DNA of 64,000 nt from an uncultured Phycisphaerales bacterium (GCA_963758525.1 CAVWVQ010000003.1:2112001-2176000), one strand, 5' to 3'; counted from the first letter of the stretch, positions 21,967 to 27,231 are shown. Made by a program: numbers and translations. The notes: a model not told the origin generated them from the letters alone.

Positions 21967-22593
21967 TCACCCGGCTTCGGCGATTCGGAGCGATCGTGAG
22001 TCGATCGGCACCTGTTCCGCGTGCAGGTCGGCCCACATCGCGGCCTCGCCGTTGAGCGGGCTTTTAATGTTGTACGCCTGATAGGCGATCATCTCGCCAA
22101 TGCGAACGGCCAAGTCGATCAGGCGTTCGCCGGCGGTCCAATGATCGCCGACGCAGATGGTGCGGGCGTCGATATTGGGGTGGAAGATCGGGGTGAGCAT
22201 CTTGCAATGAGGGCTGAGCCGGGGGTAATCGCTGGTCAGTTCGATTTCAACCAGGTGGGTGTCGCGAACGATCGGGTCGTTCCCCTTGCCGCGCTCCAGA
22301 CCGCGAACGAAATACTCCAGTTGATAAGTGGAAGGGGGATCACCGACGGCGGACTTGAGCCGGATCGGTCCGTCGGCGGCAAAGGTCCGAGCCATCAGCT
22401 CGGCATCCGCACGCAACCGCCGGACGCGCATGGGAATCCTCGGCGCTGGCGCCCGGGAGGTTGGCGGCGCCGCAGCTGGAGCGTTGGGAACGGTCAGCAC
22501 CGCGCCGCAGGTCTTGCACGACGCGCGACGGCCGGCGTACGCGGGCGGCACCGAGAACGCCCGACCGCATCGATCGCACTGAAAACTGATCAT
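21967..22593 (-). CDS. Ubiquitin-conjugating enzyme E2 (UBC fold) with N-terminal zinc ribbon
   Basis: DYPRLSP..TPIFHPNIDARTIC (HPN plus catalytic Cys), SPLNGEAA; N-terminal CDRC..CKTC; TAATG overlap with the upstream gene. Confidence 0.88.
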   Translation of the reverse strand: MISFQCDRCGRAFSVPPAYAGRRASCKTCGAVLTVPNAPAAAPPTSRAPAPRIPMRVRRLRADAELMARTFAADGPIRLKSAVGDPPSTYQLEYFVRGLERGKGNDPIVRDTHLVEIELTSDYPRLSPHCKMLTPIFHPNIDARTICVGDHWTAGERLIDLAVRIGEMIAYQAYNIKSPLNGEAAMWADLHAEQVPIDSRSLRIAEAG

Positions 22594-23573
22594 TACCGCG
22601 TCGGCAGCCATGTTCTTCCACCTACCCACCAATAATATGAGAGAGCCAGGCCCGCGACGGCGCCGGTCAATGAAACTGCGATCGAAAGAAAGACAACTCT
22701 TCGCTGGCGCTGGGGCCTGGCCCGAAACAAGTAGAGCAGCGCCGCCGCGCCCGCGACCAGCGCGGTCGCGCCGAAGGTGAGCGTCCCCGCCACCGCTCCC
22801 AGCACGCTGACGGCCAGGAGCGCATACGCCAATGGCATGCCGCCATGAGCGAGTGCGAGATGCTCCTCCAAAGGAAGGGACGAAACCACGGGCGCCGCGT
22901 CAGGCTCGCGCAGTGCCGCTGAGTTGACCTGCGAGCAGCCGTAGACGGAGCAACCGCCGTTTTCAGTCCAGCATTCGATGTGAAACAGGGCTTTGCACGA
23001 CGGGCATTGTTTGGTTTCCTCCCCCGGTTGGATCGCGCCGTGGCATATGCCGCATTGAGCCGGCGGACTCTGCGGGGTGGTCGCGTCCGGCCGCGCCGGA
23101 CCCACGGGCCGCGGAACCGCGATTGGCGCTCCGCAGATCCGGCAGCGACCCCGCTTGCCGGCGGCGTCCCACGGCGCCCACATCGGAGCGCCGCAGGTGC
23201 AGTCAAATACAATGCCCGCTTCCGGCGAGGGCGTCGGCTGTGCGCGCTGGTGGAGGTCCAGCGGCGTGGCGCCAACAGGGATGGCCTGCCCCTCCTCCAG
23301 CCGCAGCGCCAACGACCCGATGCGAATCCGGTCGCCGGGCCGAACGTCAGTGCGGACGACAACCCGCTGGTCGTTGACAAACGTACCGCTTTTGCTGCCG
23401 GCATCGGCGATGAAGTGCGTGCCGTCGGCGGTGACGCCGATCCAGGCGTGAATGGGCGCAACCGCTTTGCTGGCGGCGCGGACCTGGCTCTCGGGCCGGC
23501 GTCCGACGATGACCCGGCCGCTGATGACACCAGCTTCCATCTTGCCGTCATGTTCTACGATCAGTAGCGCCAT
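22593..23573 (-). CDS. FHA + zinc ribbon + RING-like finger + C-terminal TM protein (candidate E3 ligase)
   Basis: VGRR..HAWI..DAGSKSGTFVN (FHA); CTC..CRIC; CGIC-x11-CPSC-x4-H-x2-C-x6-C-x4-C; hydrophobic C-terminus. Confidence 0.8.
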   Translation of the reverse strand: MALLIVEHDGKMEAGVISGRVIVGRRPESQVRAASKAVAPIHAWIGVTADGTHFIADAGSKSGTFVNDQRVVVRTDVRPGDRIRIGSLALRLEEGQAIPVGATPLDLHQRAQPTPSPEAGIVFDCTCGAPMWAPWDAAGKRGRCRICGAPIAVPRPVGPARPDATTPQSPPAQCGICHGAIQPGEETKQCPSCKALFHIECWTENGGCSVYGCSQVNSAALREPDAAPVVSSLPLEEHLALAHGGMPLAYALLAVSVLGAVAGTLTFGATALVAGAAALLYLFRARPQRQRRVVFLSIAVSLTGAVAGLALSYYWWVGGRTWLPTR

Positions 23574-23588
23574 GAATCCCCGCGGTCC

Positions 23589-24816
23589 TCAGCTGGTTCG
23601 ATCCTGAAATAGAAAGATCGTCGATCCCACCGTGATCCGGTCTCCGTGGCGCAGCCGAATTTTCGAAATCGGCTTGTTGTTGATCATGGTTTTCTGTCCC
23701 AGCGGCAAATCTTCCAGTTCATACGCGCCGGGCACAATATGAATTGCGGCGTGCCGCGGGCCGACCTTGGCGTCCTTAAAGAGATAAATCTGGCAATCCG
23801 GGGCGCTGCCGATGAATGTCGGATTTCGGTAGAGGATGAACTGTTTGCCCGCCAGCACGCCGGCAATGACGCGGAGCCAAGCGGTGCGGGCGGCGTTCTC
23901 GATCAGGCCGGTTCCGATGCCGGAGATGACGCCGATCGCAAGCAGCGCCATCAGTCTCGAGTCCTGCGCTGTCAGTGAGGCGCCGCACCGGCTCGAACAG
24001 CGCGCCGCCGATCAGTCCGCCGATCAGTCCGCCGGCCATTCCAATGGCGAGCTTTTTGGGATTGCGCATCACCACTCCCGCGCCGGCGACGAGAAACAGT
24101 CCGAGGATTCCCCAGGAGCCGGTTTGCACCATCGATTCGGTCAGATGTCGCGGGCCGGCGGTTTGGCGCAGGACGTAAATGAACATCGCCGACGCCAGCC
24201 CTCCAAGCAGACCGAGCAAGGCGGCGACCGAACCGTTGGTCAGCGCACTGGCGAAATTGCGTTGCGTCAGCGGCTCGGCGACGGCAAGACATGCCGCGAT
24301 CAGCATCCCGCAGATGCCGAAGATCAGCGCGTTGCTGATGAATTCCTTGGCGCGGTCGCGCGCCGCGATTTCCGATTCGCGCGTATCCCGCTCCGCTTGC
24401 GACAGCTTCGGATCGGTTTCGATTTCAAAATAGGGATTGTCCTGCCCGTCGGCGCGGATCAGCGCCAGCGCCTGGTCGGCCTCGTCGGCGCTGGATCGGC
24501 CGGTGTCGCGGGCGGCGGTCACCTTCTGCATTTCATGAATCAGATCCGCCGCCTCGGCTTCGGTGGCGGGTTTGAACTGAAGCGCCACCCCGCTTCCCCA
24601 CGCCAGCAGCCCCCCGAGGATTCCGAAAGCGGCCATGTACACGATCGAGTTATAAATGAGCTTGGGCCGGCTCGGTCCGGTCGTTTCCGGGACCGCGTCG
24701 GCGTCGAGCTTCGCATAGGCGCGATTGCGCTCCATCGCCTTCTGCTCGCTGATGCGAGTCTCGACTTTGCGGCTCTGCAGATCGTCCCAGGTTACGACAA
24801 GTTTTTGGTTTTCCAT
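23589..24816 (-). CDS. Multi-TM protein with C-terminal FHA domain; apparent frameshift near 23960
   Basis: Gly-rich TM helices then GKQF.L..FIGS..RHAAI..LRHGDRITVGST. Confidence 0.78.
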
Positions 24817-25686: not shown

Positions 25687-26953
25687 TCCAACGCCTCGGA
25701 ATCTGCCAGCGGCCCCAGGACGCGCGGCGCGTCGGCGGCCAGCTCCAGCCCGATCGCGCGGTCGCCGGCGCGCGCGATGAGCACATCGAACAACGGCACC
25801 CCGATGCTCGCCAGCGGCTGATCGAGAAAAGATTCGTCGCCGCGGATGGTATGAAATGTCACCGGTTCGCGGCGGACATTTGGGCCGCAACTGCAGAAAG
25901 CCGCCGAGGCCGGCACGCGCCCCAGCGATGCGAACATCGTCTCTTCTTTTCCGCAAGCGGGGCAGACCAGCTTGTGCAGAACGTCGCGCGCGAACTCCAG
26001 CCCCGCGCCCGCGCCAAGACGCTGGCGCACTTCGCGAAGCAAGTCGCCGGCGGTATGCGTCAGCGCCGACGCGTCGAGCGGAATGATTTCCTGGAGAATC
26101 TCGTGACTGTAACAACTGGCTTTGCGTTGAAACTCCACCTGATACGCTTCGGTGCTCAGCCCGTCAAAAACAAACCCGCGGCCGCGGATGGTCTCCAATC
26201 CGTGCAGCAGCTTAACGGCTTCCTGTGACTGCACGCCGGCGATGATCGAGCTGATGGTCGGCGTGGTCGGGGTGTGGCCCGTTTCCATCTGCTCCCGCGA
26301 GAGAAGATTGCACGAGCGTCGAGCCTGGAGCAGTCGCCAGTCGGTCTCCGACATGGTGCATTCGTAGCAGGGCCCGTCGGGCGCGAACACGCGCGCGGTG
26401 CCCTGAATTTGCTCGATGGCGCCGTCAATCCAGGGTCGGTTGCAGCGCCAGCAGTTGCGGTTGATTGCAAGGCGCGCCTCGCGGTTATCGAGGCCGCCGA
26501 TGACGACGTCCGCCCAGCGAAACACGCCGACGCCCAGGTCGTACACCACGTTGCCGACAAAGGCGTGTGCTTTGATCTGGGGATAAATTTCCCCGGCCGC
26601 GCGAACGGCGACCTCAGCCTTGAAAGCGCCGTTATCGGCGGCGCGATAGAGCACCGAGCGCGAGAGATTCGAGTTTTCGATGCGATCCAGATCCGCGATC
26701 AGCAGGTGACCGACGCCCAGCAGCGCCAGGTTTTTGACGATCTCATTGCCCAGCGCCCGGCGCCGACGACGAGAACCTTCGCCCTGGCCAGCTTCTCCTG
26801 GTCCCACCACTCGATCAGGCGAAAACGATCAAACCGGTCGGAAACAGCGGATTGCGCATTGTTGAGGTCGATGCGAAGGCGCGGCCCATCGGGCGACGCT
26901 TCGGATTCGGCGCACGCGCTGTCGGCGACGTTGAACGGATTGGGACGCGTCAA
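25677..26953 (-). CDS. E1-like (ThiF/UBA) activating enzyme; apparent frameshift near 26757
   Basis: VVGAG/ALGNE, DLDRIENSNLSR, GLDN, CYEC, RRSCNLL (candidate catalytic Cys) and C-terminal CPAC/CSC. Confidence 0.88.
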
Positions 26954-26961
26954 ATGGATGG

Positions 26962-27231
26962 TTACCCCGCAGTAATTTCCGGCTGAAGGCGGAGCACGTC
27001 ACCGTCCTTGACCCCTGCATCAGACAGGTTTTGCTCGTCCAATAGTTGCTTGCCGGAATTGCGATGGTGAAACTTATAGCTGAGCGGCTGACCGTCAGGA
27101 GCGTAACGCGGGAAGTTCATTTTCTCCAGCAGGACGGCCAGAATTCGATTCACTGGCGCGTCATCGGGAATCTGCACTTCCTGACGCTTGGTGCCGGTCG
27201 CGTCCCATACTTGAACGTTTACGAAACCCAT
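26962..27231 (-). CDS. Ubiquitin-like beta-grasp protein (YukD/EsaB-like) ending in EITAG
   Basis: GKQLLDEQNLSDAGVKDGDVLRL resembles ubiquitin [23 protein letters not shown]; terminal Gly; first gene of the operon. Confidence 0.85.
   Translation of the reverse strand: MGFVNVQVWDATGTKRQEVQIPDDAPVNRILAVLLEKMNFPRYAPDGQPLSYKFHHRNSGKQLLDEQNLSDAGVKDGDVLRLQPEITAG

Follow-up and report, generated by a model that had tools for sequence, protein, structure and literature searches.

Can a bacterium run a ubiquitin-style pathway that brings along its own candidate E3 ligase, and, if so, does such a pathway belong to phage defence or to the resident regulation of the cell? The question is raised by an operon of six genes in a stretch of DNA of 64,000 nucleotides (hereafter the window; GCA_963758525.1 CAVWVQ010000003.1:2112001-2176000) from an uncultured Phycisphaerales bacterium. 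In gene order they encode a ubiquitin-like protein (Ubl), an E1, a JAB protease with a transmembrane (TM) helix, a membrane protein ending in an FHA domain (TM-FHA), a second membrane protein in which an FHA domain is followed by a zinc ribbon and a zinc-binding finger (FHA-zinc ribbon-finger-TM, the candidate E3), and an E2 preceded by a zinc ribbon. We consider that these genes very probably form a conjugation cascade. The fuller statement, that this cascade works at the inner membrane and is a resident regulator passed on vertically, not a mobile defence cassette, seems to us evenly poised between right and wrong.

The predicted conjugation enzymes

The six genes occupy positions 21967-27231 of the window on the minus strand (Table 1), with a gap of ~9 nt between Ubl and E1, an overlap of 10 nt between E1 and JAB, gaps of 21 nt between JAB and TM-FHA and of 15 nt between TM-FHA and the finger gene, and an overlap of 19 nt between the finger gene and E2. 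A first-pass annotation, made from the sequence of the window, had described six co-directional, tightly spaced genes; coordinates and strand were confirmed, with junctions of 9-21 nt, and Pfam profiles matched the domains it had listed for a profile check, namely, YukD, ThiF, JAB, FHA (twice), Prok-RING_1 and UQ_con. For comparison we took the best 80 of at least 520 Ubl loci. The same genes, mostly in the same order, recur in dozens of these 80 loci, so the gene order is not a matter of chance, and the catalytic residues expected of the enzymes are kept in the alignments both here and in the relatives.

Table 1. Positions of the operon genes, their motifs and the divergent neighbour, counted from the first nucleotide of the window
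Feature	Position	Strand	Description
Ubl	26962..27231	-	89 aa, YukD-type beta-grasp, PF08817 E 5.6e-13, ends PEITAG-stop
E1	26953-25677	-	~425 aa, two frames (break ~26755), ThiF E 5.5e-41
E1 motifs	CYEC zinc motif at 26369; candidate catalytic Cys in RRSC, codon 26312-26310; C-terminal domain with inserted zinc ribbon, CPAC at 25964	-	from sequence
JAB/JAMM metallopeptidase	25686-24838	-	PF01398 E 6.3e-11, PF14464; one C-terminal membrane helix
JAB motif	Glu at 25506; HTHP-x6-S-x2-D from 25314	-	full JAMM
TM-FHA	24816-23589	-	six predicted helices, ~85-aa loop after helix 1, C-terminal FHA E 4.2e-13; two frames
FHA-zinc ribbon-finger-TM (candidate E3)	23573-22593	-	FHA E 2.5e-12; Prok-RING_1 PF14446 29.8 bits, cut-off 29.1
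Candidate E3 domains	FHA aa 21-86; zinc ribbon aa 125-147; finger aa 174-213, from 23054	-	then 2-3 predicted membrane helices
E2	22611-21967	-	UQ_con PF00179 E 2.4e-8; N-terminal zinc ribbon (CDRC at 22578) and UBC domain
E2 active site	HPN at 22182; catalytic Cys codon 22155-22153	-	from sequence
wzc-type polysaccharide co-polymerase/tyrosine kinase	27460..29604	+	TIGR01007 over cut-off; divergent neighbour outside the operon

The Ubl encoded here ends in Ala-Gly, not in Gly-Gly, and has no tail beyond the Gly; it is already in the mature form. PEITAG is present in 74 of 74 Ubls caught by that very pattern among the 80 loci; after the Gly follows a stop in 30 of the 74 and an unrelated tail in the other 44, an invariant Gly with free tails being the pattern expected if the JAB trims to the Gly. 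The last 31 residues align with ubiquitin residues 46-76 without a gap, placing G89 on G76, at a weak per-domain score. Identity among the Ubls of the best 80 loci is 66-90%, a very slow change.

The E1 retains the Gly-rich motif, SNLxR and the CYEC zinc motif, the Cys of RRSC is invariant in 43 of 43 aligned E1s, and the best sequence match in the PDB is the SUMO E1 subunit SAE2. A structure model of an intact homologue (L046; predicted local distance difference test, pLDDT, 89) contains a single adenylation domain, for which MoeB/ThiF are the best structural matches (MoeB, Z 31 over residues 29-277), and alignments of the same model with UBA3, SAE2, UBA1 and UBA7 reach residue ~400 at root-mean-square deviations of 3.5-7.3. 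Judged by the model, the C-terminal domain may have the ubiquitin fold that binds E2, interrupted by a zinc ribbon; sequence searches with this domain alone returned zinc-ribbon matches only.

The JAMM motif is kept in nearly all JAB homologues listed, and the best PDB matches of the JAB are Rpn11 (E 7.9e-10) and then CSN5, the archaeal Rpn11-like 6fjv being matched as well. In the E2 the H, P, N, C and W are invariant in all 31 aligned sequences, and UBE2C, UBE2T and UBE2N are the best PDB matches; E2s of this HPN type pair with RING E3s in eukaryotes. A search with the E2 matched 3124 relatives, of which the 120 listed do not enter the comparisons made here. The enzymes that the first-pass annotation had read from the window, namely, a beta-grasp Ubl ending in Gly, an E1 with nucleotide-binding motifs and a candidate catalytic Cys, a JAMM protease and a UBC E2 with HPN and Cys, have therefore all been borne out.

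Two further observations concern the E2 domains. We considered the N-terminal zinc ribbon of the E2 as the mark of a large substrate family and rejected the idea, since a strict pattern for it finds only three in the genome. Separately, an 832-aa protein is encoded at L039:7101-9599 on the minus strand (G000:C3, ~4015100-4017600), whose N-terminal part resembles a UBC domain (PF00179 E 2.8e-4), with HPN but no Cys at the expected place, and which runs on into a long helical region; long open reading frames (ORFs) matching with similar score occur in several genomes of the family, including G010, which is without the operon.

The membrane proteins and the candidate ligase

Hydropathy predicts one membrane helix in the JAB (aa 225-255), six in TM-FHA and two to three in the finger protein, and none in the E2 or in the main E1 piece (25680-26756). 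The first-pass picture of a writer, an eraser and an adaptor that are all anchored therefore holds for the JAB, TM-FHA and FHA-finger proteins and fails for the E2 and the main piece of the E1. The TM-FHA helices are counted as 5+1 here and as six in each of three intact homologues. Because no hydrophobic stretch precedes the catalytic domains and the TM-FHA helix count is even, we infer that the catalytic and FHA domains face the cytoplasm and that the 85-residue TM-FHA loop lies outside.

The phosphate-binding motif of FHA domains consists of Gly-Arg and Ser-x-x-His. At the Gly-Arg site, TM-FHA has Gly-Ser in 60 of 63 sequences and Arg in none, and at the canonical Ser position Gly stands in 40 of the 63; this non-canonical FHA is strongly conserved all the same, and it probably offers a conserved surface without phosphate binding. 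The FHA of the candidate E3 keeps the motif in most relatives (G-R in 23/25, S in 23/25, R in 22/25, H in 24/25), and the genome holds 17 matches to Ser/Thr kinases. The finger itself follows the pattern C-x2-C-x12-C-x2-C-x4-H-x2-C-W-x5-C-x4-C, with eight ligands in C4HC3 order; ligands and Trp are invariant in 55 of 55 rows selected by that same pattern. PF14446 has no second match in the genome. The structure model of the finger has a pLDDT of 86.

Distribution, inheritance and genomic setting

The inheritance of the system was followed in 72 genomes of the family that are at least 90% complete, in 62 of which the rpoB control was found. Ubl, E1 and E2 are each present in a single copy in the same 46 genomes, and none of the three is found in the other 26. 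(These counts include G004, whose removal shifts each by at most 1 and which was left out of both trees; the trees also omit genomes without a usable rpoB or E1 match, leaving 61 rows for presence and 40 for the comparison of E1 with rpoB.) Ubl and E2 lie within 8 kb of each other in 26 of the 46, and the three enzymes persist together even where they are on separate contigs or at separate loci. The finger is found in 44 of the 46 system-bearing genomes; in most loci, split operons included, it adjoins the E2. Over 40 genomes, 10 of the 15 strong splits of the rpoB tree reappear in the E1 tree; the single conflict lies inside a genus, and E1 and rpoB distances are correlated (0.63, Mantel p 0.001).

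The place of the operon is also largely fixed. A wzc-type gene stands head-to-head with it, no more than 1.2 kb from the Ubl match, in 30 of the 46 genomes, and these fall on either side of the deepest split in the rpoB tree as drawn. Among the 80 loci, the wzc gene is followed by a sugar transferase in 15, by a WecG glycosyltransferase in 10 and by a flippase in 10; in the window wzc seems to change frame at ~29440 and, unlike in many relatives, the large ORF that comes after it does not encode a sugar transferase. The simplest reading of these patterns is that the gene set is ancestral, has kept its place under vertical inheritance and was lost many times. What is new here is the family-wide single-copy co-occurrence, the fixed wzc neighbour and the host-like E1 tree, whereas published accounts lead one to expect sporadic defence operons.

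The set is taken apart or enlarged in some loci. In nine of the 80 (L051, L055, L061-L066, L072) the Ubl gene is followed directly by TM-FHA, without E1 or JAB and mostly near DUF2617 and fliM, which suggests a Ubl/TM-FHA link of its own. Two or more fingers occur in other planctomycete or myxobacterial loci (L091, L100, L105, L110, L117, L118 and others), often with a DUF4190-trypsin protein and with DUF2752 nearby. Among the Ubl matches listed, a few come from records that bear the names of myxobacteria and Victivallales.

The contig that contains the window is 5.0 Mb long and belongs to a six-contig assembly of 6.47 Mb, 91% complete; the G+C content of the operon, 61-65%, is similar to that of the remaining window. 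Since the nearest named relatives of the Ubl, among the matches listed, are metagenome-assembled genomes of the Tepidisphaerales/Tepidisphaeraceae, the host most likely belongs to that group. A scan for promoters and terminators gave signals at chance level only. Short imperfect repeats stand at gene ends in the window at 19960-20250, 17390-17500 and 21860-21890 (translated runs resembling 'PSCLRAFV', and CAGGG-type units directly downstream of E2). Elsewhere in the genome about 15 tRNA genes are clustered at G000:C3 3764011-3766477, and five tandem tRNA-Ser(GGA) calls are made at 4444824-4445528.

A proposed pathway, its rivals and its known relatives

Let us assume that the genes work together. 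The JAB would then trim Ubl precursors to the invariant Gly, as its JAMM motif and the tails of the 44 longer Ubls suggest, and would later remove the tag; the Ubl of the present operon would need no trimming, which leaves the JAB as eraser. The E1, which has the motifs for it, would adenylate the Gly and take the Ubl onto the RRSC Cys, and its C-terminal domain, placed in the model like the E2-binding domain of UBA3, SAE2 and UBA1, would perhaps hand the Ubl over to the Cys of the E2. In the weakest step of the scheme, the membrane FHA-finger protein would act as the E3, its finger binding the loaded E2 and its FHA picking substrates marked by phosphothreonine, in the manner of Dma1/Dma2, CHFR and RNF8, which are soluble proteins with true RING domains. 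The six-helix TM-FHA protein might serve as scaffold or sensor through its outward loop and conserved FHA surface. The tag would likely alter how membrane proteins act, are sorted or are turned over, and among such proteins the wzc/exopolysaccharide cluster offers the first candidate target set. A more specific version, in which an ancestral housekeeping regulator has its membrane FHA-RING ligase read phosphothreonine and tag Wzc, the exopolysaccharide machinery or other inner-membrane proteins, we regard as rather unlikely in all its particulars; it would give bacteria an equivalent of phosphorylation-directed ubiquitination that lies outside immunity.

Several of our results pull against this proposal, some at the finger and some in the distribution. 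The FHA of the candidate E3 reads VAPIH here and VSRxH in relatives, both congeners retaining the Ser-Arg; Ala-Pro replaces Ser-Arg, and two phosphate-binding residues are lost. The finger contains the spacing C-x2-C-x4-H-x2-C, which we take to be PHD/C1-like. Its sequence matches mix RING-H2, PHD and C1 about equally; Foldseek with the finger model gave no match at E 0.001, with RING and PHD interleaved among the weaker rows, and the fold comparison (VIA) reached Z values of at most 5.3, with many RING/U-box rows and also ZZ, PHD and C1. Genus g8 (G009, G094) keeps an intact FHA-finger-TM gene (L212:5231-6421, L213:5090-6283) in genomes where no Ubl, E1 or E2 was found, and this gene may have a role of its own. 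The spacing and mixed matches of the finger and the persistence of the g8 gene would suit a cascade of Ubl, E1, E2 and JAB that runs without an E3, as Bil does, with the finger as a PHD/C1-like adaptor binding peptides or lipids; the E2 could be docked by its own N-terminal zinc ribbon, and a passage of PMC11601596 proposes direct target recognition for Bil E2s. We judge this improbable, because the finger accompanies the cascade in nearly every genome and mostly adjoins the E2, because its best full-length fold matches lean towards RING/U-box (RNF126, Z 5.0 over 54 residues), and because the E2 is of the HPN type. The finger is probably the E3, a role that we assign from gene context and not from fold. 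The first-pass reading of the whole as a Ubl/E1/E2/JAB/RING cascade thus stands as regards its catalytic residues, which are invariant or nearly so, and the eukaryotic conjugation enzymes that are the nearest solved relatives of its enzymes, and is weakened as regards the finger, which is no more than a candidate E3 and which the sequence and fold matches leave between RING, PHD and C1. As for distribution, genomes with the system lie scattered over the rpoB tree (15 changes in 61 genomes, p 0.11 against 500 shuffles) and the Ubl is found in only 29 of 300 genomes of the phylum, about 10%; the system can therefore be dispensed with, and defence genes, too, are typically lost often. The rpoB tree is that of one marker, its bootstrap is unconverged and about half of its branches are unresolved. 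Moreover, wzc-like genes occur in 69 of the 72 genomes, with or without the system, and in 16 of the 46 the two are not adjacent under the cut-offs applied, and hence the wzc link may be plain synteny. The same cascade could, then, be an anti-phage or other conflict system, with the membrane proteins as sensors of infection or of damage to the envelope and with phage or host proteins as the targets of the Ubl, to stop the infection. The conjugation pathways of CBASS and Bil act in defence according to PMC11601596, a passage of Chambers et al. (PMC10557695) predicts an antiviral function for the RING-containing operons, a related tri-ligase set is used in the predicted FtsH-ternary conflict systems described in PMC7159879, and the surface-polysaccharide neighbour could be a phage receptor locus. 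Against defence stand the single copy, the fixed neighbour, the family-wide congruence of the trees and the slow change of the Ubl. No defence gene appears in the recurrent neighbour clusters scanned, and searches of viral contigs and of plasmids yielded no Ubl relative; a search for the E2 in 72,556 plasmids returned one distant match, of 28% identity, in Crinalium epipsammum (NC_019754.1 40575-41051). PADLOC has no model for the Ubl, E2, finger or TM-FHA proteins and gave weak, domain-level matches for E1 and JAB only (BilD model, E 1.1e-4). We place the defence function at the upper end of unlikely. Among the roles that the first-pass annotation had offered, namely, signalling, membrane quality control and defence, the inheritance favours resident regulation over a mobile defence cassette, with defence as the main rival, and we lean modestly towards regulation.

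Two further objections concern the integrity of the operon and the chemistry of its Ubl. As assembled, the E1 changes frame within the G run of the Gly-rich motif and TM-FHA at ~23960, where there is no plain homopolymer; with VAPIH and the many losses in the family, the two broken frames could mean that the operon is decaying in the source strain, as the first-pass annotation had allowed for while advising a check of both breaks in reads. A single 151-nt contig of public soil short reads (depth 2.9), with one other difference from the window, has one extra base at 26755 and an open E1 frame; no near-identical public contig crosses 23960, so that the check is answered for the E1 and not for TM-FHA. 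The E1 is in frame in 62 of 64 motif-bearing genes among the 80 loci, and the same Gly codons are broken in four highly contiguous assemblies, that of the window and those of L057, L118 and L224 (two of these three came from the 80 loci, and the third is a family genome checked separately). In 62 of 62 homologues the membrane part and the FHA of TM-FHA are joined in one ORF of at least 340 aa. Scored against proteins from 25 fetched loci, the assembly shows 12 further frame switches in 11 of 47 non-operon gene regions over ~58 kb, about one per 5 kb, which makes two breaks in 5.3 kb unremarkable. Conserved sites have changed 47 times here as against 56 times in a congener, with no excess. Both frameshifts are probably assembly errors, the first with read support and the second with none, and decay of the operon seems to us very unlikely. 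The other objection, that the Ubl is a ThiS/MoaD-like sulfur carrier served by a ThiF/MoeB-type E1, draws on the structural closeness of the adenylation domain to MoeB/ThiF and on the matches of ThiF/MoeB models. These matches fall far below the equivalog cut-offs, the genome has three separate ThiS-family genes and a better ThiF-family gene elsewhere, Ubl and E1 strictly co-occur with an E2 whose active site is intact, the Ubl ends in AG, and no sulfur-pathway gene was found among the recurrent neighbours scanned; we give a sulfur carrier next to no credence.

If the proposed cascade works, it would be the first native bacterial E1-E2-RING E3 pathway in the literature searched. We found no bench study of a RING-containing bacterial Ubl operon in that literature, which excludes most subscription papers, so that this is not proof that none exists. 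Bacterial Ubl pathways shown to modify targets, CBASS Cap2/Cap3 and Bil, act in phage defence in the passages describing them, Bil without an E3. If the inheritance seen here reflects the job of the system, ubiquitin-style tagging would be part of ordinary bacterial regulation as well, which bears on the origin of the eukaryotic system. The first steps lend themselves to reconstitution, since Ubl, E1 and E2 are small, predicted to be soluble and present as intact copies in many relatives. The recurrent error site in the E1 will hide this gene in annotations.

Burroughs, Iyer and Aravind are said to have predicted RING-containing (tri-ligase) Ubl operons in Planctomycetes, Actinobacteria and Acidobacteria in 2011; the class has thus been in print since then, which limits the surprise. 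Judged by its gene content, the operon described here is a member of this class, which we know from the papers that cite it. A passage of PMC4197634 places related operons in Actinobacteria, Planctomycetes and Acidobacteria and calls them sporadic and often missing in close relatives; Chambers et al. (PMC10557695), in the passage concerned, cite rare bacterial RING E3s and treat the operon families as uncharacterised; and in Kaur et al. (PMC7159879) tri-ligase sets form part of FtsH-ternary systems, and a further one is coupled to Pup. The first-pass statement that such operons had been predicted and were uncharacterised agrees with these passages. Like the class, the operon unites Ubl, E1, E2, JAB and a Prok-RING_1 finger in a planctomycete host. 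It may stand apart from the class as a compact set of six genes that combines FHA, zinc ribbon, finger and anchor in one chain and carries a zinc ribbon on its E2; the finger-DUF4190-trypsin protein of other planctomycete loci is absent. Whereas the tri-ligase operons are sporadic according to PMC4197634, this one occupies a mostly fixed locus in 46 of the 72 genomes of the family, and its tree is host-like. The Pup-coupled system of PMC7159879 has a Pup ligase, for which PF03136 gave no match in our 91%-complete genome, which is not proof of absence. Two PF00227 matches (ORFs of 191 and 311 aa) do not speak for a 20S proteasome, since the family also matches in E. coli and B. subtilis.

The operon can also be compared with better-known systems. 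With the operon of Caldiarchaeum subterraneum, as described in passages of PMC4197634 and PMC11354881, the latter also describing BilB, it shares a Ubl, an E1, an HPN-type E2, a finger and an Rpn11-like JAB; the Caldiarchaeum tag is a true ubiquitin and its finger a C3H2C3 RING-H2, whereas the tag here is of YukD type and ends in AG, the finger is C4HC3 and three of the proteins are predicted to be membrane-anchored. With Bil, Bub and CBASS Cap2/Cap3 (PMC10557695; Bil and Bub are described in PMC11601596 and PMC11601603) it has in common, as far as these passages go, a Ubl, E1, E2 and JAB, and a Ubl that is processed to a C-terminal Gly. BilABCD, in the same sources, has an E1 of IAD-AAD-CYS architecture, a CEHH-type E2 and no E3; the present operon has an E1 with one adenylation domain, an HPN-Cys E2, the finger and two further membrane proteins. 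Lastly, the union of an FHA and a RING-like finger in one chain recalls the eukaryotic FHA-RING ligases Dma1/Dma2, CHFR and RNF8, as passages of PMC3637335 and PMC3406662 present them, from which the bacterial protein would differ by the predicted zinc ribbon between its two domains and by its predicted membrane anchor.

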